From the NCBI RefSeq assembly GCF_056712565.1, contig NZ_CM160072.1: a stretch of DNA of 64,000 bases; one strand, 5' to 3'. Below are positions 54-53,969 of this stretch, in pieces. The notes below the pieces were generated by a model. That model did not search any database. It was not told where the DNA came from and saw nothing but the letters and a program-made list of their open reading frames with translations. The position numbers and the translations under genes were made by a program. How positions within the stretch are numbered: the first letter of the stretch is position 1; each line of letters opens with the position of its first letter.

Positions 54-1190
54 GTGTCTGAAAGAAATTACGACTCTTCTGGCAGAAGAATTATCAAACA
101 GACGCGAAATGATGAAAAAGATTTGGGAGGTAAAGTACACCCTGTGTCATCTTCAAGCATCAAACCGGTAGTAGACTACTACATTAATGGAGATAATCTC
201 TATGAACCATTATCAATTCCCCCTTATGGAGTTAGAACTTATAAAGATACTTTTCAACTAATCATCTATAAAGAAGGAATTAGATATAATAAGCCAGCAA
301 TTTATTTTGGTAAAATTCAATCTAATATACGGCTGGAGATAAATTCGAATAGATATTACCTTACTTTTTTAGCCAGAAAGAAAGGTACCAAACAAGCATA
401 TAAACTTGAAATTGATGCTTCAGAATGGGATGAAAGTAAAAAGAGTTTTTTCTGTAGTGAGTATGAAAAACAAAGAGCAGAAGCAAATAAGTATTATAAT
501 GGACTAAAAGACAAGCGCAAAGCAACCAAATATCTTAATATTTTCTTTTTTGGTTTTCCTGATGAGTGCGATAGTTTTTTATTTAAGACTAGTTGTTTTA
601 AATTGATTTATATCGTTTTCTTAGATGATTTTGATGTGACTTATAATGACAAAAACTACAGCATAGAAAAAGAACAGCTAATTAGAGATGAAATTAACAA
701 AGAACATTTGACAGATCATCAAAATAGAATAAACCTTGCTGAGGTTGCTGAGGTTGCTGAGGTTGCTGAGGTTGCTGAGGTTGCTGAGGTTGCTGAGGTT
801 GCTGAGGTTGCTGAGGTTGCTGAGGTTGCTGAGGTTGCTGAGGTTGCTGAGGTTGCTGAGGTTGCTGAGGTTGCTGAGGTTGCTGAGGTTGCTGAGGTTG
901 CTGAGGTTGCTGAGGTTGCTGAGGTTGCTGAGGTTGCTGAGGTTGCTGAGGTTGCTGAGGTTGCTGAGGTTGCTGAGGTTGCTGAGGTTGCTGAGGTTGC
1001 TGAGGTTGCTGAGGTTGCTGAGGTTGCTGAGGTTGCTGAGGTTGCTGAGGTTGCTGAGGTTGCTGAGGTTGCTGAGGTTGCTGAGGTTGCTGAGGTTGCT
1101 GATTTTGACAAGAGCGAATTTAACCCTTCGGATTCTGATAGGAAAATATGGACTGGGATAAGAAAGCTTATTTCATTCTTTAAAAAATAG
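54..1190 (+). CDS. Hypothetical protein with C-terminal (Ala-Glu-Val)n tandem-repeat tract; reading frame is open to window start so the N-terminus may lie upstream
   Basis: 378-aa ORF in AT-rich DNA; about 40 consecutive AEV tripeptides encoded by perfect 9-bp repeat; no stop in frame between position 3 and 54. Confidence 0.45.
   Translation: MSERNYDSSGRRIIKQTRNDEKDLGGKVHPVSSSSIKPVVDYYINGDNLYEPLSIPPYGVRTYKDTFQLIIYKEGIRYNKPAIYFGKIQSNIRLEINSNRYYLTFLARKKGTKQAYKLEIDASEWDESKKSFFCSEYEKQRAEANKYYNGLKDKRKATKYLNIFFFGFPDECDSFLFKTSCFKLIYIVFLDDFDVTYNDKNYSIEKEQLIRDEINKEHLTDHQNRINLAEVAEVAEVAEVAEVAEVAEVAEVAEVAEVAEVAEVAEVAEVAEVAEVAEVAEVAEVAEVAEVAEVAEVAEVAEVAEVAEVAEVAEVAEVAEVAEVAEVAEVAEVAEVAEVAEVAEVAEVADFDKSEFNPSDSDRKIWTGIRKLISFFKK
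737..1100. repeat. Perfect 9-bp tandem repeat (GCTGAGGTT) x about 40, in frame within ORF 54..1190
   Basis: Directly visible in sequence; generates spurious ORFs in other frames (SATSAT.., LRLLRL..). Confidence 0.95.
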
Positions 1191-3858: not shown

Positions 3859-5159
3859 CACAATTAGTTTTCCATCATAAACATCACCATTTGCCGCCAG
3901 CAAGTGAGAAAGTGTTACCTGTTCAGCTATATGGATTAAGTGGTCAGAGGCGCGGAGATATATCTGTTATCGGGAATCCTGCGATTGATCGGATCAGACG
4001 TTTGGGAGTACAGCTTCCAGCTAAGGTCATGGATTTTCTGAGTGTTGCATTAGCAGTAACTGCAGCAGATACTTTCGTTCAGCGTGAAAGTTCCGAGGAT
4101 GGTTGGACCCGCCAATTGTCGTTACGACTCCCCCTTCATGAACCATCCAGATGGATTAGTCTAAAGAAAGAACTTGAGAGTGCTTTGCATTTTCTTAGTG
4201 GAGACATCTGGGATTTCGAATTTTGTGACGATGGTTATGCACCGCCAGAGCCTTATAGCCAGCATTCAAGGCATCGTCTGATTAAGCTAAAAGGGCTTGA
4301 CTGTGTCAGCTTATTTTCAGGAGGTCTGGATTCAGCTATTGGTGCAATAGATCTTCTGGCTGCAGGGCGCGCTCCACTTTTGGTTAGTCATGCTTATAAG
4401 GGGGACAAGTCTCGTCAAGATCAGATCGCTGAAAAATTAAGTGGCCAATTTTCGCGCTTTGAGATTAATGCTGACCCACACATTTATCAAGGCGTGACTG
4501 ATATTACGATGCGAACTCGTAGCCTCAATTTTCTTGCCTTTGCGGCCGTAGGTGCTTGTGCCGTACAAGAGATATCTCAACAAGAAAAGATTGATTTGTT
4601 CGTACCTGAAAATGGATTTATCTCATTAAATGCACCACTTACTCCACGGCGGATAGGTTCGCTGAGCACACGAACAACACATCCACATTTTATTACGAGC
4701 ATACAAAAGATCTTTGATGCGCTCGGTATTTCTTGTCAAATAATCAATCCATATCAGTTTAAGACAAAAGGAAAAATGATCTCCGAATGTTCAAATAAGC
4801 AGCTCTTATCTAAAATTGTGGAAAGTACAGTATCCTGCAGTCATTGGAAACGAATGGGGCAGCAATGTGGGGTATGTATACCGTGTATCATTCGACGAGC
4901 ATCACTTCATGCAGGGGGAATTAGTAGAGATGTTGAATATATTTTCCAGTCCTTAGCTAAAGTAATGAATGAAATAGATCGCAGGGACGACCTGATCGCC
5001 CTTAGGATTGCGATCACGCAGAAATCGACTTTGAAAATAGGTACATGGATTGCCAAAAGTGGCCCTTTGCCTACGGCAGAATTTGATAATTTCAAGCAAG
5101 TATTTAAGGATGGCCTAGATGAGGTTGAAAGCTATTTACTGAGTGAGAACATAGTATGA
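3840..5159 (+). CDS. qatC: QueC-like PP-loop ATPase family protein (QatC-like)
   Basis: PP-loop SGGLDS; C-terminal Cys cluster CSHWKRMGQQCGVCIPC resembling QueC zinc site; about 150 aa extra N-terminal region; 439 aa. Confidence 0.7.
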   Translation: MGGIPVTQLVFHHKHHHLPPASEKVLPVQLYGLSGQRRGDISVIGNPAIDRIRRLGVQLPAKVMDFLSVALAVTAADTFVQRESSEDGWTRQLSLRLPLHEPSRWISLKKELESALHFLSGDIWDFEFCDDGYAPPEPYSQHSRHRLIKLKGLDCVSLFSGGLDSAIGAIDLLAAGRAPLLVSHAYKGDKSRQDQIAEKLSGQFSRFEINADPHIYQGVTDITMRTRSLNFLAFAAVGACAVQEISQQEKIDLFVPENGFISLNAPLTPRRIGSLSTRTTHPHFITSIQKIFDALGISCQIINPYQFKTKGKMISECSNKQLLSKIVESTVSCSHWKRMGQQCGVCIPCIIRRASLHAGGISRDVEYIFQSLAKVMNEIDRRDDLIALRIAITQKSTLKIGTWIAKSGPLPTAEFDNFKQVFKDGLDEVESYLLSENIV

Positions 5160-5881
5160 GCATCGATATGCACTGTCATCTAGACTTATATCCTCGGCCA
5201 GACCTCGTGGCTGAAGAAAGTAAGCGTCGAGGGACTTATATTCTGTCGGTGACAACAACACCTAAAGCATGGCATGGTACTTCTTTATTGGCTAAAGAAA
5301 GTCAACGAATCCGAACTGCTCTTGGGCTACATCCTCAAATCGCGCATCAAAGATCGCATGAGTTAGACCTGTTTGATTCATTGCTTTCGGAAACTAAGTA
5401 TGTAGGGGAAATAGGGCTTGATGGTGGACAGGGATTTAAAGAACATTGGGATATTCAATTGAAAGTGTTCCGACACATTCTCAACAGTGTAAATCGGGCT
5501 GGTGGCAAGATTATGACTATCCATAGTCGGGGAAGTGCATCAGCGGTGCTTGATGAGATTGAAAATATCGATGGGGTGGCAATATTGCATTGGTTCACTG
5601 GAACACCTAAGCAGCTTGAAAGGGCAATTGATTTAGGATGCTGGTTCTCAGTGGGGCCTGCTATGCTCGATACAATAAAGGGTAAGGCCTTAGTTTTGAA
5701 AATACCCAAATCACGCATTCTTACAGAAACAGATGGGCCATTTGCTAAGTTTCGTAATGACCCACTAATGCCATGGGATAGTGGGATTGCAGAGAAACAG
5801 TTAGCCGCATTATGGGGGATTAGTCAGATGGAGGTTAATGCTCAGCTAGTTGATAATTTTAAGGTATTATGTACATCATAA
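5156..5881 (+). CDS. qatD: TatD-family metal-dependent hydrolase/nuclease (QatD-like)
   Basis: N-terminal DMHCHLD (HxH), EIGLD, C-terminal TETDGPF motifs typical of TatD; 241 aa; start overlaps qatC stop. Confidence 0.75.
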   Translation: MSIDMHCHLDLYPRPDLVAEESKRRGTYILSVTTTPKAWHGTSLLAKESQRIRTALGLHPQIAHQRSHELDLFDSLLSETKYVGEIGLDGGQGFKEHWDIQLKVFRHILNSVNRAGGKIMTIHSRGSASAVLDEIENIDGVAILHWFTGTPKQLERAIDLGCWFSVGPAMLDTIKGKALVLKIPKSRILTETDGPFAKFRNDPLMPWDSGIAEKQLAALWGISQMEVNAQLVDNFKVLCTS

Positions 5882-6433
5882 GAATGAAAAACTTAGATAT
5901 GCATTTACAGTTCAATTCATTTTTCGTCATCAGTTAATTACACATAAAATTAAAAGTAAGAATATATCTACCCTGTGAATGAGTAAGGCGGATTTATATA
6001 GTTTGTAATTAGTTTAAATGTAAGCAGTTCGTCAGAGTGCGTATTCCGCTCTATTCGATCACGGATTGGCCGTTATGACCCGATCTCGATGGAAGTTATT
6101 GGGTGATCCCCTTCCATGAAAATATGCACCGAAGCTCCCGCAGAGGTTTCCGTGGGCGAAGGCATGATTCTGTCCGAGAGCCGGATGTGTTAGAAGCGCA
6201 TGTCCGCTTCGATGAGCGGGGTGTGGAAACAGGATTTATGGTCAGGACAGTAAGGCACCGCCAATCGAAAGAGGCGGCAACAGATATGCCTGACCTGTAA
6301 AATTACCGCGCCACATCTTGACTCTACCCGTTTTCCAAGCGCCCCCCCTTATAGAACGTACACTGGATGGTGATACCGGCTATACATCGCATATTTGACA
6401 GTCAGCTTGCTGAATTTTTCATTGGCTGCAGCA

Positions 6434-7009
6434 TCAGGGCGTTTTCCAGATGACAGCTATAGTAAAAATGATCGCCAGACTGGCGAGAAAGCAGAGCGAA
6501 AGCGGGATTTTGTCCTTCAGTGTCAGGTTCAGCTCTTCTTCAACCCATGCTTTTTCAAATTCACAGTAAAATTTATAATGTGCGTACCAGTTACTTCCGA
6601 AGATCTGTTTGCTGATGACCGTGCCGTAAAACCGGGACATGATAGCGTCGATGGATTGTTGTGTACGCTGATAGTCAAAGTTTGCATCGCTTTTTACGTT
6701 GCGGTAGATGACTTCAAGTTCATTAAAAATTTTGGTCTGCTCAATCCCCGCACTTTCATAACTCTGCTTTTCCGAGTCATAAAACTGAATGTACATTGTA
6801 GCAACACCAAATATAATTAATATCGCGGAAATGACGTTTGTGGCCAGCTCAGGAATAAAAAGGGCGAACACACCGACAGCAAGAGAAATAAAGCTAATCC
6901 AACCGGATGCCTTACAAATCAGATCATAGGTGGCAAAGTTTTTCTTAGCGCCAAATCCAACGTTATAACCATGTCGGGCGATTAATTTCAGCATCTCTGA
7001 TTGCGTCAT
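6434..7009 (-). CDS. Small membrane protein, SLATT-like putative effector partnered with nucleotidyltransferase
   Basis: 191 aa; two central hydrophobic helices (WISFISLAVGVFALFIPELATNVISAILIIFGVATMYIQ) plus C-terminal hydrophobic segment; 7-nt gap after upstream gene. Confidence 0.5.
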   Translation of the reverse strand: MTQSEMLKLIARHGYNVGFGAKKNFATYDLICKASGWISFISLAVGVFALFIPELATNVISAILIIFGVATMYIQFYDSEKQSYESAGIEQTKIFNELEVIYRNVKSDANFDYQRTQQSIDAIMSRFYGTVISKQIFGSNWYAHYKFYCEFEKAWVEEELNLTLKDKIPLSLCFLASLAIIFTIAVIWKTP

Positions 7010-7016
7010 AAAAACC

Positions 7017-8345
7017 TCAGCTTATGGGAACTTCAATCTGGGCCCGGGCAACCACAACCTCATTTTTTATCACATAGCATTCTACCATGTGATCTCCGCG
7101 GAAGTCGGTAGTTTCTTTCTTCGTACAGTAGCCGCCGTCCGAAACGATTTGTCCCCGGATCATATTTCTTCTGCGTGCTTCGTCACCCACGTTCAGTACC
7201 TTCCACATAACGGTGTAGGGTTCCTCTGCCTCCATTTCTGTCAAGTCTGCCCGGAAAAGGAGAGATTTTCGAGCGGAGAGGCGGAATCTTCTGATAAGCA
7301 TCTCCCTCAGGCTTCTGGGAGGGAAACCATCCTGGGTTACGGTACAGTCAAGGTTGAGTGAGTACCTGATATCCACCGGATATTTATCCTCTATAAACTC
7401 TTCGGTATCGGTCCAGGGAACAGCATCTGCCGCATGCGATTCCAGACCAAGACGGGCTTCCATAATACCCACTTTACGTCTGGGGAAGGCTCGTCCGAAC
7501 ACTTTGCGCCAGCGGTCATTTTCACTGGCAGCCCCCTCAGCGTCTAAGGCATCACAACATAATTCATACGCGTGTTTCGCTGCCCGGCCAAACCAGGGAG
7601 ATTTAACACGTACATGCTGATTACTGCCTAACGCGAGATACCTTTCCTTTCTCTCCTCATTTGACAGATATTCAAAAAAGTCTCTGGCGAGGGCTCCCAG
7701 GCTGCCATTTCCGGTATTGTCATAATCTGATGTTGATGAAAGAAAGCGATACGCTAGTGTGTCTATCAGTAAGCCACCCATATTGACGCCATGCAGGTTC
7801 TTCCAGGCTCTGATCATTTTACACAGCTTGCGCAGATTATTGGATTTATCTCGCGAAAATGCGGTCATGGCCGCCTTTTCGTGAAGAGGTTTTGTAATGC
7901 GCCATGCTCCTCCATTATAGCTTTCAGGGAATTTAAAGCTGTCATCATCCTGTCTGAATACAGGTTGAACCTCGACATAAAAGTTTTTAAAGATGATCTG
8001 AACAACCAGTCTGTCCTTTTTCACAGTCTGGTCAGGATATTCTTCCGCCAGAATGTTTCTGACATCTGTAAGCAATGCAGACTGACCATTATCCTTACGG
8101 TTATAATATTCATACTGATTGGGGGGCATAATATAAAGCATATCCAGATCGGATATGCCTTTTATTGCGGTATGTCTGCCTACTGACCCCACTTTCAAGC
8201 GGTTTGCTACCCGGGAACTCGTTCCTCTGAACGCAAGATTTAATGACTTGGTTATTTTTCGATAGTGATAGCTGATCTTTTTTGCCTGTTTGAGGTCAAG
8301 ATTCAAATTTTCAAGAAATTCGCTGAACAATTCCCTGTGGCTCAT
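7017..8345 (-). CDS. SMODS/CD-NTase-like nucleotidyltransferase with about 120-aa C-terminal extension
   Basis: Pol-beta-type NTase signature GSVGRHTAIKGISDLD (GS-x10-[S]DhD) and downstream acidic strand YVEVQP; 442 aa. Confidence 0.55.
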   Translation of the reverse strand: MSHRELFSEFLENLNLDLKQAKKISYHYRKITKSLNLAFRGTSSRVANRLKVGSVGRHTAIKGISDLDMLYIMPPNQYEYYNRKDNGQSALLTDVRNILAEEYPDQTVKKDRLVVQIIFKNFYVEVQPVFRQDDDSFKFPESYNGGAWRITKPLHEKAAMTAFSRDKSNNLRKLCKMIRAWKNLHGVNMGGLLIDTLAYRFLSSTSDYDNTGNGSLGALARDFFEYLSNEERKERYLALGSNQHVRVKSPWFGRAAKHAYELCCDALDAEGAASENDRWRKVFGRAFPRRKVGIMEARLGLESHAADAVPWTDTEEFIEDKYPVDIRYSLNLDCTVTQDGFPPRSLREMLIRRFRLSARKSLLFRADLTEMEAEEPYTVMWKVLNVGDEARRRNMIRGQIVSDGGYCTKKETTDFRGDHMVECYVIKNEVVVARAQIEVPIS

Positions 8346-8448
8346 GGTGTTTCCTTTGGCATGTGAAACATTAGCTTACATTATCATTACACCTTATAAA
8401 AACCAAGATCTTGGGAGGTGAGCGTTCTGCATGGCTTTATGACTTAAA

Positions 8449-8666
8449 CGTAAGCGTTAACGGAGTGCCGTATTGACGCTTATTTATTGGTGAGTACTAC
8501 GTTCCATGGCAGGAGTTCGTCAACTCGGTTGGAAGGCCATTCCGGCAGTACGCTCAGGATATGGCTCAGATACGCTTCCGGATCGATATCGTTCAGTCGG
8601 CAGGTGCCGATCAGCCCGTACAACAGTGCTCCTCGCTCGCCGCCGTGATCGCTGCCGAAGAACATA
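8449..8666 (-). pseudogene. IS66-family transposase 3' fragment with element terminus (GTAAGCG...)
   Basis: 61-aa ORF ending ...LYGLIGTCRLNDIDPEAYLSHILSVLPEWPSNRVDELLPWN resembling IS66 TnpC C-terminus; GTAAGCG terminal motif at about 8449; abutted by IS911. Confidence 0.45.
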
Positions 8667-8685
8667 ATGAATCGCCACGGATAAT

Positions 8686-9498
8686 CTAGACACTTCCGAG
8701 CCGTTGATAATACTGGTTTTCATATTCTGTCGGTGACATCTGTTCGCTAGAACCATGCCGACGCTTACTGTTATAAAACATTTCGATGTAATCAAAAATA
8801 TCACTGCGGGCTTCTTCCCGCATTCCGTAGATCTTTTTCTTTATCCGTTCACGTTTCAACAACTGGAAAAAACTTTCTGCAACCGCATTATCATGGCAGT
8901 TACCGCGACGGCTCATGCTACCCTCCAGGCCGTGTGATTTCAGGAACGACTGCCACTCATGGCTTGTGTACTGACTGCCCTGATCCGAATGAACCAGCAC
9001 CTGTTTTTCGGGATTACGCCGCCATACAGCCATCAGCAGTGCGTTCAGGACAATGTCCTTTGTCATCCGGGATTGCATGGACCAGCCGATAATTTTGCGT
9101 GAGAACAGATCAACAACAACGGCAAGATACAGCCAGCCTTCGTGGGTCCTGATGTAGGTTATGTCCGTTACCCAACGCTCATCAGGAGCATCCGGATTGA
9201 ACTGTCGCTGGAGCCTGTTGGGTGACATGATACTGGCCTCGCCTTTACGTGCCCGCGGGCTTCGGTATCCGACCTGAGCCTTTATTCCGACACGTTTCAT
9301 CAGTCTCCAGACTCTGTTTACTCCGCACTGTTGCCCGCTGTCACGCAGATCCAGATGGATTTTGCGATAACCATAGACGCATCCCGATTCCAGCCAGAAC
9401 TGTTTAATCTGTCCTGTCAGTCTCAGGTCTGCCTGATGGCGTTGTGAATGCGGCTGCTGAAGCCAGGCGTAAAAACCACTGGGATGAACATCCAGCAC
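8686..9498 (-). CDS. IS911 transposase OrfB (DDE integrase domain)
   Basis: 270-aa ORF with IS3-family catalytic region (HSDQGSQYTS.., CHDNAVAESFF). Confidence 0.8.
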   Translation of the reverse strand: MLDVHPSGFYAWLQQPHSQRHQADLRLTGQIKQFWLESGCVYGYRKIHLDLRDSGQQCGVNRVWRLMKRVGIKAQVGYRSPRARKGEASIMSPNRLQRQFNPDAPDERWVTDITYIRTHEGWLYLAVVVDLFSRKIIGWSMQSRMTKDIVLNALLMAVWRRNPEKQVLVHSDQGSQYTSHEWQSFLKSHGLEGSMSRRGNCHDNAVAESFFQLLKRERIKKKIYGMREEARSDIFDYIEMFYNSKRRHGSSEQMSPTEYENQYYQRLGSV

Positions 9499-9554
9499 CC
9501 GACAGAGCAGGCGAACAGGCCAGCAACAGGTGTTGTCACGGATAAAGGCGTACC

Positions 9555-9842
9555 TCAGTCGGACAGCTTTGCGAAGTACGCCGCCTTTTTTAATATTTCA
9601 TTCTCCATTTCAATGCGTTGTAGCTTTTTCCTCAGCTTACGTATTTCGATTTGTTCTGGTGTTATCGGAGAGGCTTTTGGTGTTTTGCCCTGACGCTCAT
9701 CACGCAGTTGTTTGACCCATCTTGTCATTGTGGAAAGGCCAACATCCATAGCTTTGGCGGCATCTGCCACCGTGTATTTCTGGTCAACAACCAGTTGAGC
9801 GGATTCGCGTTTAAACTCTGCGCTAAAATTTCTTTTTTTCAT
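9555..9842 (-). CDS. IS911 OrfA (HTH transposition protein)
   Basis: [49 protein letters not shown].. ; start trimmed to internal Met. Confidence 0.75.
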
Positions 9843-9915
9843 TGGAGCACCTGTGTTGTTCTGAGGTGAGCATATCACCTCTGTTCAGGTGGCCAAATTC
9901 AGTGTGCCACTTCAA

Positions 9916-10289
9916 GCCGGGAGCGGCGTCAGCCAGTCTCCCTTTACCCGCGCTTTTTCGGAAAGCCCACCCCAATGTTTTTCTCCTACACCCCAGCCGG
10001 TCAGCAGGACCTTATCCCCGGTCTGATATTCAGGATGTGAGCTGGCGGACACTGTACCGGCAAAATCAATGCCTGGCACCATTGGAAAGTGCCGGACGAT
10101 AGGCCCGCGGCCCGTAATAGCCAGTGCGTCTTTGTAGTTGATAGATGAACAGTCGACATTGACCTCCACATCCCCCTGTGGCAGCTCGCTTTCAGCGATT
10201 TCAGCAATTTGGGCACTGTGGCGACCATACATCTTACTGATTAATAAGGATTTAAACATTTTTTTCTCGTCTTTCTGGTTTGATGTCAT
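9916..10289 (-). pseudogene. N-terminal fragment of YhdH/AcuI-like NADPH-dependent quinone oxidoreductase, truncated by IS911
   Basis: 125-aa ORF with [34 protein letters not shown] motifs of MDR superfamily; ends at the IS911 terminus. Confidence 0.6.
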
Positions 10290-10859
10290 TGAGCTATAAA
10301 GTAGTCAATAAACAATATTGACCGATCGTCTAATAATCAACGCTGATATCCCAGTGTTTGTCAGAAAACAAGAATTGCTTTTCTTTTCATCAGGTTAAAT
10401 CTATCTTTTTTGATTTATATCAAACCAGATTCGGTCTTCAATTATATAGGCATCAATGTTAGCGGTCCTACAAGATACGCAGTCGATGCTTCAGGGCGTA
10501 CTGATGAAATAAAACAAGTAGGCTGAGATTAGTTGGTCTGCTCATCGCTCACAGCGGACCTTCAGCTTCGTTAGCCAAGCGCTGACATAGTTACCGATGT
10601 AGCGTGTTAATCTGTCGGGAGCATAGCCGAAATCACTTAACCCATTAGACTTCACCTAAAACTGCAAAAATTACCGTCTTTGTCACACTCACCGAGTTTA
10701 ATCAAACTAACACTGTACATAGTGCGAACAAGAGCCAACCAGAAAGACTGTTCAGCATCAACAGTGAAGTTTTTCCCCGCTACTTCCCCGCAATTCTTCC
10801 GCAGTTTTCCCACTAGAGAGTTCGACACATCCCTTGCATACCAACGCTTTGATTCAAAT

Positions 10860-11627
10860 CTCGGTAGTGCATCCAATTAGTAGAATATGTGTTTTTCGAT
10901 AAATGCTCCGATCACTTTTTCGTGGATCTCAACTGAGCGTGAGAAGCAGATTGTTTACGAGCCAACCGCTTAATGTGGGTGCGTAGCGTCAGATTATTAC
11001 GCTCAATGCGTTGGGTGAATATTTTGCCGGTCAGATGCTTATTCTTCGGCACCACCCGGCCATAGCTGTCCCAGTCATCGCTGGTGAGCATGCCGATGTT
11101 GAAGGGTGTAAGCAGTGCCAGTAGCTCCCGGCACGTTTGATCGGTTCGGGGACCAAAAGTGTAGGCCAGTACACCGCCTGTTTTGGTGTTGTACGCGTAC
11201 CAGAGCCAGTGTAGCCGGGCTTTACTGCCAACGTAGCTCCATTGCTCATCAAGCTCGCAGATAAGCGCCACATCAGCATGGGCAACAGGCGAAGAAGTTA
11301 TTTGCGTTGGTGCGAGTTTTTTAAAGTCCGGATGATGGTGTTAATACCAATTTTCAGTGTCCTGGCGGTATCGCGAACCCCGGCACCATTAAAGGCCATT
11401 TCAGTGATCATCTCTTTCATACCCGGCTTACGTGCTTGATAAGTATAAGTGAGCTGAAACACACGGTGGCAGTCACGGCAGCGAAATCTGTCACGGCCTT
11501 TAGGGTTCTGACCATGGCGGTAAACCTGAGCTGACTGACAACGGGGACAATGAATATTAACGCTGGCCATGAGATAACCTCAAAAGCCCGTATTATACAT
11601 CAGATTCAACCAATTAGAGGCATCACC
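10860..11627 (-). mobile_element. Divergent IS1-family insertion sequence
   Basis: InsA-like (11298..11570) and InsB-like (10912..11271) ORFs; ends resemble IS1 IRs (GGTAGTGCATCCAA... / ...GGCATCACC); InsA only about half identical to the canonical IS1 InsA at 17483. Confidence 0.65.
11298..11570 (-). CDS. insA: IS1-family InsA-like protein (divergent isoform)
   Basis: 90 aa, Zn-finger CPRCQS..CRDCHR and HTH resembling IS1 InsA. Confidence 0.7.
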   Translation of the reverse strand: MASVNIHCPRCQSAQVYRHGQNPKGRDRFRCRDCHRVFQLTYTYQARKPGMKEMITEMAFNGAGVRDTARTLKIGINTIIRTLKNSHQRK

Positions 11628-11822
11628 CTTTCCTACATTCGTAGGACTTTGATTACATATAGCAAGGGTTAATTCTTATATACATAGAATAAATTAGGAA
11701 TATAATGAATTTTATCGTGACGACCTTATTTATAATTAATTTATATTGTCAGAGAAATTAGTGTCCACAACATGAAGCCTTACAAAGAGATTCTATGATT
11801 TAAAAAAAATAAGAGCCAGCTT

Positions 11823-13292
11823 ATGCATATCGATTCGACTGAAAAAAATAATAAACAAAAGTTGGGCTTGCTTGCGCTAACATCCATTGTCGTGAGCTCG
11901 ATGATCGGCAGCGGCGTTGACGGACTCCCCCAGAATATGGCGGAGAATTCTGCCGTGGGCCCGGTGGCGATAGCATGGATAGTCTGTGGTATCGGCATGT
12001 TTTTCATCTCCAGAACTTTTATCGTGCTGTCAAACATTAGACCTGATCTCCAGTCAGGAGTTTATATGTATGCCCGGGAAGGGTTCGGCCGATTTACGGC
12101 ATTTAACGTCGCCTGGGGCTACTGGCTGATGACTATATTCAGCAACGTCGCCTTTGCCATTATGGTGATGGATACGCTGAATTATTTCTTACCAGGTGAT
12201 TTCAAGGGAGGGAACAATATTCCTTCCGTTATCGGTGCCTCTTTGCTGATATGGGGATTCAACTTTTTAGTCCTCTCCGGTACCCGCATTGCCGGGTCGA
12301 TTAACATCGTCGGCACGCTGGCCAAACTGATCCCGCTGGTGGCCTTTATTATTATTCTCATGCTGTTTATGAAGTACACCACGTTCGCAGATAACGTCTG
12401 GGGGCACAGCGCGAGTAAGGCCAGTCAGGACCTAGGCTCTATTTTCTCACAGGTAACTTCACCGCTTAGCGTGGCACTCTGGAGCTTCATCGGCGTTGAG
12501 GGGGCTGTCGCTCTTTCCGGTCGGGCCAAAAATAAACGCGACGTGGGTAAAGCCACATTCATTGGCTTCGTTGTATCACTGATTATCTGTCTGCTGGTCT
12601 CCATCCTGCCGTTTGGCGTGCTGACTCAACATGAGCTCAGCGCAATTCCAACCCCATCCACCGCCGGTATTCTGAAGATTGTTGTCGGTGAATGGGGGAA
12701 GATTATGATTATCTTGGGGGTGCTGATTTCGGTGCTTACCAGCTGGCTGGCGTGGACCATCATCTGCGCCGAACTGCCTATGGTGGCCGCGCAGAACGGC
12801 ACATTCCCGAAACCGTTCAGCAAAAAAAATGTGAAGGGTTCGGCCTCGGTTTCGCTTTATATAAGCAGTGCGTTTATGCAAATCGTCGTACTTCTGGTCT
12901 ACTTTTCTAACGATGCCTGGCTTGCAATGCTGGCTATCTCTACCCTGACCGTTTTACCTGCGTATTTAATGACCACGGCATACCTGTTTAAACTATGTAT
13001 TAGCGGCGAGTATGCCAGCTATACCACGAATCACAGCCGCAGCGCCGCGCTGGTCAGCAGTATTATCGGCTTTGTATTCTGCCTGTTTATGTTCTACGCC
13101 AGTGAAATCAAATATCTGGCGATGGTTCCGGTGCTGCTTACGCTGGGCGTGCCCCTGTTTATCTGGGCAAGAAAAAAAGACGATCGCGCAGATAAAATAT
13201 TTACGCTACGCGAACTGGCATTTTTTATTTTACTGCTGGTCCTCGACATCATTGTTTTTATTCTACTGCATTATAAAACGATACATTTTTAG
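11823..13292 (+). CDS. APC-superfamily basic amino acid antiporter, ArcD/YdgI-like (paralog 1)
   Basis: 489 aa polytopic; N-terminal KLGLLALTSIVVSSMIGSGV..LPQNMA and GVYMYAREGFG, FIGVEGAV..SGRAKNKRDVGKAT motifs as in arginine:ornithine-type antiporters. Confidence 0.7.
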   Translation: MHIDSTEKNNKQKLGLLALTSIVVSSMIGSGVDGLPQNMAENSAVGPVAIAWIVCGIGMFFISRTFIVLSNIRPDLQSGVYMYAREGFGRFTAFNVAWGYWLMTIFSNVAFAIMVMDTLNYFLPGDFKGGNNIPSVIGASLLIWGFNFLVLSGTRIAGSINIVGTLAKLIPLVAFIIILMLFMKYTTFADNVWGHSASKASQDLGSIFSQVTSPLSVALWSFIGVEGAVALSGRAKNKRDVGKATFIGFVVSLIICLLVSILPFGVLTQHELSAIPTPSTAGILKIVVGEWGKIMIILGVLISVLTSWLAWTIICAELPMVAAQNGTFPKPFSKKNVKGSASVSLYISSAFMQIVVLLVYFSNDAWLAMLAISTLTVLPAYLMTTAYLFKLCISGEYASYTTNHSRSAALVSSIIGFVFCLFMFYASEIKYLAMVPVLLTLGVPLFIWARKKDDRADKIFTLRELAFFILLLVLDIIVFILLHYKTIHF

Positions 13293-24161: not shown

Positions 24162-24237
24162 TGGTGCCCGGACTCGGAATCGAACCAAGGACACGGGGAT
24201 TTTCAATCCCCTGCTCTACCGACTGAGCTATCCGGGC
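24162..24237 (-). tRNA. pheU: tRNA-Phe (GAA)
   Basis: Reverse complement reads GCCCGGATAGCTCAGTCGGTAGAGCAGGGGATTGAAAATCCCCGTGTCCTTGGTTCGATTCCGAGTCCGGGCACCA. Confidence 0.95.
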
Positions 24238-38104: not shown

Positions 38105-38157
38105 CAGCTTTGCAGGACGACCTGCAAACGCGTCTTTTCACCGGGGACGGCCCCAAT
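38105..38157 (+). promoter_or_regulatory. Guanidine-II (mini-ykkC) riboswitch-like tandem hairpins in sugE 5' leader
   Basis: Two stem-loops each with ACGR loop: TTGCAGG-ACGA-CCTGCAA and GGGG-ACGG-CCCC, just upstream of the SMR guanidinium exporter gene. Confidence 0.6.
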
Positions 38158-53670: not shown

Positions 53671-53746
<76 letters not shown>

Positions 53747-53782
53747 AAATTTGAAAAGTGCTGTAAAGCACAGACCACCCAA

Positions 53783-53858
<76 letters not shown>

Positions 53859-53893
53859 AAATTTGAAAGTGCTGTAAAGCACAGACCACCCAA

Positions 53894-53969
<76 letters not shown>

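Follow-up and report, generated by a model that had tools for sequence, protein, structure and literature searches.

A spacer between the QatABCD and type I CBASS modules of an Escherichia coli island, composed largely of mobile-element relics

Two defense modules and the gap between them

What lies between two adjacent anti-phage modules where no gene can be called? The window analyzed here, a stretch of 64,000 nucleotides, is E. coli DNA with 99.9% identity to an island of strain CFT073, minus the IS30 copy of CFT073, whose insertion falls at the equivalent of 9583/9584. The original prediction, made from the sequence alone, pointed to an unassigned spacer between the Qat operon and a convergent nucleotidyltransferase module and offered convergent terminators, a small RNA or a decayed gene fragment as its possible contents. 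The gap at 5882-6433 is real, is 552 bp long and lies where it had been placed: on its left qatD ends at 5881 on the + strand (PADLOC QatD, E 5.8e-97), and on its right lies, at 6434, the stop of a SLATT_6 two-transmembrane (2TM) effector gene encoded on the - strand. The naming of the nucleotidyltransferase module was likewise correct; it is more exactly a type I CBASS in which a SMODS + AGS_C CD-NTase is paired with a SLATT_6 effector. The described change from AT-rich to GC-rich sequence holds as well, with 30.7% GC in 5882-6060 and 51.5% GC in 6061-6433. No RefSeq/PGAP feature lies under 5882-6433 in any of 30 listed fully matching E. coli genomes, CFT073 included. Comparison with plasmids and complete genomes resolves the region into the following segments, listed with the neighboring genes:

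5882-6037, no strand: AT-rich tail of 156 bp (28% GC) directly after the qatD stop
6038-6070, - strand: outer 33 bp of the ISSso4 right inverted repeat (istB-side end), with the terminus TGCGTATT at 6038; the interior would point rightward
6072-6128, - strand: outer ~57 bp of an ISEc12-like left inverted repeat (istA-side end), with the terminus AATATGCA at 6128
6129-6327, + strand: 3'-terminal 199 nt of a class F group II intron, from homology to intact introns; E.c.F10 in the literature
6129-6167, + strand: end of the reverse transcriptase/maturase gene, last 12 codons (PKLPQRFPWAKA) plus stop, from tblastn with the Buttiauxella LtrA
6178-6210, + strand: mutated intron domain V, from Rfam Intron_gpII and alignment to intact copies
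6214-6327, + strand: unusually long domain VI with an internal GGTCAGG...CCTGACC hairpin, from Rfam structure alignment and minimum free energy (MFE) fold
6328-6342, + strand: about 15 intron-linked nt, common to the Buttiauxella and Xenorhabdus sequence just downstream of the intron
6343-6433, - strand: sequence beyond the SLATT stop that forms the 3' flank of the CBASS cassette, from IncX plasmid homology
6434-7009, - strand: SLATT_6 two-transmembrane effector
7017-8345, - strand: SMODS + AGS_C CD-NTase
9912-10289: acrylyl-CoA reductase pseudogene, acuI/yhdH-type (NCBIfam NF051456, N-terminal ~114 residues only)

These assignments have led us to propose that the spacer is very probably a rearrangement scar where QatABCD and a type I CBASS, anti-phage modules acquired separately, meet in a genomic island of E. 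coli B2 type. By homology, about 72% of it is assignable, to IS ends, an intron tail, an exon remnant and the CBASS flank, and each assignable part falls within a family that already has a name (ISSso4, ISEc12, the class F intron fragment E.c.F10 or the IncX-type CBASS flank). In a search of 5,426 complete E. coli genomes, the full locus was found in about 245 at identities of at least 99%, a near-identity that fits clonal descent and is also compatible with selection; several hundred further E. coli genomes match only a short multi-copy piece. A search of the spacer for inverted and direct repeats returned nothing beyond short, for the most part imperfect pairs of 10-19 nt, judged to be chance.

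The surrounding DNA has several further features. The window carries a tRNA-Phe gene at 24162-24237 (- strand) and three tandem tRNA-Gly(GCC) genes at 53671-53969 (+ strand), from which the island would seem to occupy a pheU-type site, like the arrangement in S88 and APEC O1 (PMC3522654), and not the selC site of CFT073. A Guanidine-II (mini-ykkC) riboswitch lies at 38109-38155 (+ strand). The gene upstream of qatA is annotated in CFT073 as a frameshifted hypothetical protein. Alignment of window positions 880-958 with CFT073 (locus L001, 2999-3221) gives two overlapping blocks offset by 143 bp, indicating a 143-bp difference in tandem-repeat copy number in this gene.

The second unexplained gap that had been pointed out, at 10290-10859, also exists and is present in 402 E. 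coli genomes. It is bounded by the truncated acuI/yhdH-type pseudogene start and by an IS1 copy that begins near 10863. No annotation lies under it in 30 records sampled from the 402 matching genomes, it has no Rfam match, and its two ORFs are without an NCBIfam match. In some strains an IS66-like element breaks this gap at about 10544.

Identity of the segments

The AT-rich tail at 5882-6037 belongs to this locus only. A search in sensitive mode recovered it at this place in 250 of the 5,426 complete E. coli genomes and found no relatives elsewhere in E. coli, leaving 28% of the spacer without a homolog beyond the locus. When qatD 3' end and tail together (5650-6040) were searched against plasmids, only qatD was matched. 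The qatD gene of a Xenorhabdus nematophila plasmid is 88.5% identical to that of the window, with the match ceasing at about the stop codon (window 5876), which places the tail outside the Qat cassette on that plasmid. Within 5882-6037 there is no ORF, predicted terminator or RNA family, and folding of the AT-rich part showed no notable hairpin. An IS66-type end starting with GTAAGC at 6020 was considered for a time and was dropped once the multi-copy match had been mapped to 6038-6070 and ISSso4.

The GC-rich portion begins with two fused termini of IS21-family elements. Positions 6038-6070 are identical at 33/33 positions to the istB-adjacent end of ISSso4 copies and are the source of the multi-copy matches, which occupy up to 33 places per genome, many of them on plasmids. 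The adjoining 6072-6128 shows 92.5% identity over 53 bp to the ISEc12 region between istA and the left terminus, and this second multi-copy piece was present in 2,297 genomes in a more sensitive E. coli search. Together they form a 91-bp, ends-only element at 6038-6128, TGCGTATT...AATATGCA, with termini facing outward and zero interior. Its ends have the hallmarks of the IS21 family, that is, terminal inverted repeats with TG...CA ends together with subterminal repeats, and the subterminal motifs of the two halves are those of two different family members, with one such repeat kept on the ISSso4 side. Neither istA nor istB is present in the 91 bp between the termini, the ISSso4 match being confined to 33 bp and the ISEc12 match to the outer ~57 bp. 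No target-site duplication flanks the stub, which is bordered by ...GTCAGAG on the left and CCGAAGC... on the right. The 91-bp stub is thus a relic and no longer an IS, unable to transpose on its own because istAB is gone.

A Salmonella enterica plasmid, pCFSAN017963_01, carries at 245490-245701 (locus L010, 3001-3212) a 212-bp ends-only IS21-family element with the same hybrid layout. In this element, ~105 bp of the ISSso4 right end, reaching about the istB stop, is joined directly to an ISEc12-like left end starting a short way upstream of the start of istA. The stub was at first read as a purely local deletion between two neighboring IS, a reading weakened by this element of like layout; since the 212-bp version shares the hybrid layout, the stub could instead descend from a hybrid non-autonomous element. 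The hybrid ends may have arisen once, as such an element, or twice, by similar deletions. On the chromosome of E. coli Nord1 (locus L003, 2412-3536), an ISSso4 terminus lies ~75 bp from another, truncated ltrA pseudogene, a site that may represent a second IS21-family interruption of a group II intron.

Directly to the right of the ISEc12-like terminus begins the 3' end of a group II intron. In a plasmid search, the 223 nt of 6129-6351 proved 95.5% identical to an intact intron carried by plasmid pBTX_57 of Buttiauxella sp. 3AFRM03, the homology starting 39 nt before the ltrA stop. Other close matches of the intron tail were found in Xenorhabdus TH1 (94%) and Enterobacter ludwigii (92%), and there are no other relatives of 6129-6351 on E. 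coli chromosomes. At ~79% identity, 6150-6328 matches ltrA-linked copies in many Proteobacteria, Bradyrhizobium, Burkholderia and Sinorhizobium among them; where copies of the segment are annotated, they sit under or beside "ltrA, group II intron reverse transcriptase/maturase." The Buttiauxella intron is ~2 kb long, starts with GTGCG, has a 3' end of ...CUCUAC and scores 104 bits against the Rfam model group-II-D1D4-4 and 38.8 bits against Intron_gpII. Its LtrA protein is intact at 464 aa, with RVT_1 and GIIM domains (TIGR04416). In tblastn, residues 453-464 of this protein match 6129-6167 at 11/12 positions, and no other part of LtrA, including the reverse transcriptase and maturase (X) domains, is found in the whole window. 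Collinear nucleotide homology to an intact, validated intron establishes the descent of the fragment.

The structural landmarks of the intron 3' end can still be followed. Domain V at 6178-6210 retains a recognizable AGC triad and scores 17.3 bits against Intron_gpII (E 0.69, gathering score 40). The score is low because domain V carries three substitutions relative to intact copies, one of which leaves C-C in place of a C-G pair in the lower helix; the predicted energy of the hairpin is -11.9 kcal/mol, compared with -18.2 kcal/mol in an intact relative. This sub-threshold match is unconvincing alone and is given meaning by the plasmid homologs. Domain VI contains a bulged branch-point A at 6321 and terminates in ...CUCUAC at 6327. 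The 3' boundary at this base is marked by the distant relatives, which cease aligning at 6327-6331, and by the published fragment, which ends at the same position. The 5' GUGYG end and domains I-IV were not found: group-II-D1D4 models had no match in 5000-12000, nor in the whole window at gathering score. Because D1-D4 and the intron-encoded protein (IEP) are missing, the piece cannot splice or move.

This fragment has been published before. Leclercq & Cordaux (PLoS One 2012, PMC3522654) described E.c.F10a as a 177-bp class F fragment at 4296437-4296613 of NC_004431, in the selC island, and gave D.a.I1 as its nearest reference, at 77% similarity (Tables S2/S3). The same authors listed this fragment, as E.c.F10b, also in APEC O1 and S88, where the island occupies a different site (PMC3522654). 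The published CFT073 coordinates of E.c.F10a map to window 6151-6327.

On the other side of the intron, the spacer merges into the CBASS cassette. Positions 6343-6433 and the SLATT gene share ~96% identity with IncX1/X3 plasmids of Salmonella, E. coli and Shigella, and because this homology begins at 6343-6345, the segment is assigned as the 3' flank of the cassette itself. The IncF plasmid pEC507_1 (the copy compared is locus L009, 3440-5557) carries the CBASS cassette with window 6228-6433 only, an IS2 cutting at the equivalent of 6228; at the seam, the intron tail can therefore be placed with CBASS and not with Qat. The 15 nt between intron and flank, 6328-6342, are not matched in the intron-free CBASS flank of IncX plasmids and, to judge from these alignments, are probably a remnant of the intron 3' exon, the homing site. 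The IncX plasmids were considered as an empty intron site and proved unclean in this role, as ~15-20 nt beside the intron differ and the flank is common only from 6343.

The ~96% identical SLATT_6 + CD-NTase cassette is found widely among small conjugative IncX plasmids, with carriers in Salmonella, E. coli, Shigella and Klebsiella, and on IncX1/X3 plasmids (loci L011, 2501-4503, and L012, 2501-4501) it adjoins two HEPN-domain genes. Flanking the intact introns of Buttiauxella and Xenorhabdus are a common stretch of ~20 nt of 5' exon, CTTAACGTA..ATAA.TT (loci L007/L008, ~1690-1712), and another of ~20 nt of 3' exon, CG..TTCCAAGCG.C.CCC (L007/L008, 3700-3718). That both introns have these exon flanks in common suggests a specific homing site.

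Function or scar

A spacer between convergent operons might be thought to serve their transcription, with hairpins of the relic or of the AT-rich part stopping or insulating Qat and CBASS transcripts in a shared 3' region. Convergent operons need some means of stopping, the relic forms long stable helices (MFE -71.5 kcal/mol), and pEC507_1 has retained this flank beside its CBASS cassette. The convergent terminators that had been suggested were nevertheless not found: a consensus scan of 5600-6800 placed no intrinsic terminator within 5882-6433, where no hairpin is followed by a T-run, and its sole prediction, at 6486-6472 inside the SLATT ORF, equals the shuffle expectation of 0.9. Counts from the promoter and terminator scan as a whole did not exceed those of shuffled sequence. 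The folding energy of the relic is also no better than that of shuffled sequence (6129-6340, z -1.6 on the + strand and -1.1 on the - strand, not significant). Moreover, IncX plasmids bear the CBASS cassette without any intron relic, so the cassette does not need it. A role for the spacer as terminator or insulator is accordingly unlikely. The same folding result, together with the Rfam scans, bears on the suggestion of a dedicated small RNA, which is not supported: there were no matches in 5000-12000 at E <= 1, none in the spacer when the whole window was scanned at gathering score, and only sub-threshold group II domain V matches when the spacer alone was scanned at E <= 10. Its companion, that the 65-aa ORF encodes a real small protein, starts from an uninterrupted frame (6103-6300, + strand) with a GTG start and from a comparable "hypothetical protein" ORF annotated over the intron 3' end in Xenorhabdus. 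The earlier distrust of this Arg-rich ORF, in which 12 residues (18%) are Arg, was justified. It begins within the IS relic, passes the stop codon of ltrA out of register with that gene and continues through domains V and VI; the conservation of its sequence is explained by this overlap with intron RNA, the frame of ltrA being a different one. It has no Pfam or NCBIfam match, and PGAP calls it in none of the 30 E. coli genomes listed. The ORF is therefore judged spurious, a by-product of reading through GC-rich intron RNA, and the notion that it is a real protein, or the region a dedicated small RNA, is extremely improbable.

A different view makes the 91-bp stub and its 212-bp Salmonella counterpart a live IS21-family MITE, mobilized in trans by resident IstA/IstB. 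The stub has kept its two termini, TG...CA ends included, and some of the subterminal repeats, and the Salmonella plasmid provides a second locus where an ISSso4-type right end is joined to an ISEc12-type left end. A MITE is recognized by multiple dispersed copies with target-site duplications, and these were not found for the 91-bp unit in E. coli: the full unit occupies a single locus across the 5,426 genomes, and the 212-bp form was found in 2 Salmonella plasmid records only and in 0 E. coli genomes. The stub has no target-site duplication, its ends carry the repeat motifs of two elements and a single subterminal repeat remains on the ISSso4 side. Mobilization as a live MITE is thus highly improbable, and whichever its origin, the hybrid stub layout is not that of a proliferating MITE. 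A more speculative reading would have a hybrid ends-only IS21 mini-element (91 bp/212 bp), mobilized or recombined by ISSso4 and ISEc12, join defense cassettes, or would have the domain VI hairpin co-opted as a Qat/CBASS insulator; we consider it very unlikely.

The preferred reading remains that the spacer is a scar between separately acquired modules, and we propose the following model for its formation. A class F group II intron would have resided ~106 bp downstream of the SLATT gene. An IS21-family element would next have inserted into this intron, 39 nt ahead of the stop codon of ltrA, killing it; such an insertion is suggested by the exact junction of IS terminus and intron at 6128/6129. 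Through IS-mediated recombination or deletion, the interior of the IS would then have been lost together with the 5' 90% of the intron and the DNA beyond, an event that would have brought the remainder beside the AT-rich qatD tail. Homology establishes the identities of the segments; the order of events is inferred rather than shown, because the stub lacks a target-site duplication (CAGAG on the left, CCGAA on the right). On this model, the adjacency of Qat and CBASS results from IS-mediated rearrangement, and the pair is not a designed unit. From the sequence, no gene, ribozyme or mobile-element activity would be expected in the spacer, and at most passive read-through transcription from either operon.

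For annotation, this means that about 72% of an unannotated gap is accounted for and that a candidate small RNA and a candidate small protein can be dropped from consideration; RefSeq misses both relics, the IS stub and the intron tail. The suggestion of a decayed gene fragment survives once it is widened: what has decayed in the GC-rich half is mobile-element DNA, in which the remains of a gene, the ltrA tail, adjoin fused IS21-family ends.

Comparison with known elements

The ends of the stub match the termini of ISSso4 and ISEc12, with the TG...CA of the family. Unlike either element, the stub is without istA, istB, interior or target-site duplication, and its ends come from two family members. 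Compared with the intact Buttiauxella intron, the intron tail is a relic that has lost D1-D4 and almost the whole IEP gene and retains domain V in mutated form.

The intron tail has the same sequence as the published E.c.F10, with an exactly matching 3' end. Two points differ from the published description: intact relatives at 92-96% identity extend the fragment to 199 nt (6129-6327), and the 5' break is now recognized as an IS21-family terminus. E.c.F10 can thereby be linked to intact, near-identical copies in Buttiauxella, Xenorhabdus and Enterobacter. The new details are modest, consisting of the extension to 6129, the nature of the break, the existence of these close intact introns in other Enterobacterales and a CBASS cassette boundary at ~6343. 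The intron fragment is already published, and the scar is a real but ordinary finding. Mobile-element fragments are known to border horizontally acquired cassettes, a pattern that this locus illustrates clearly, base by base, and the arrangement here, with Qat on one side and an IncX-type CBASS on the other, is likewise nothing unusual.
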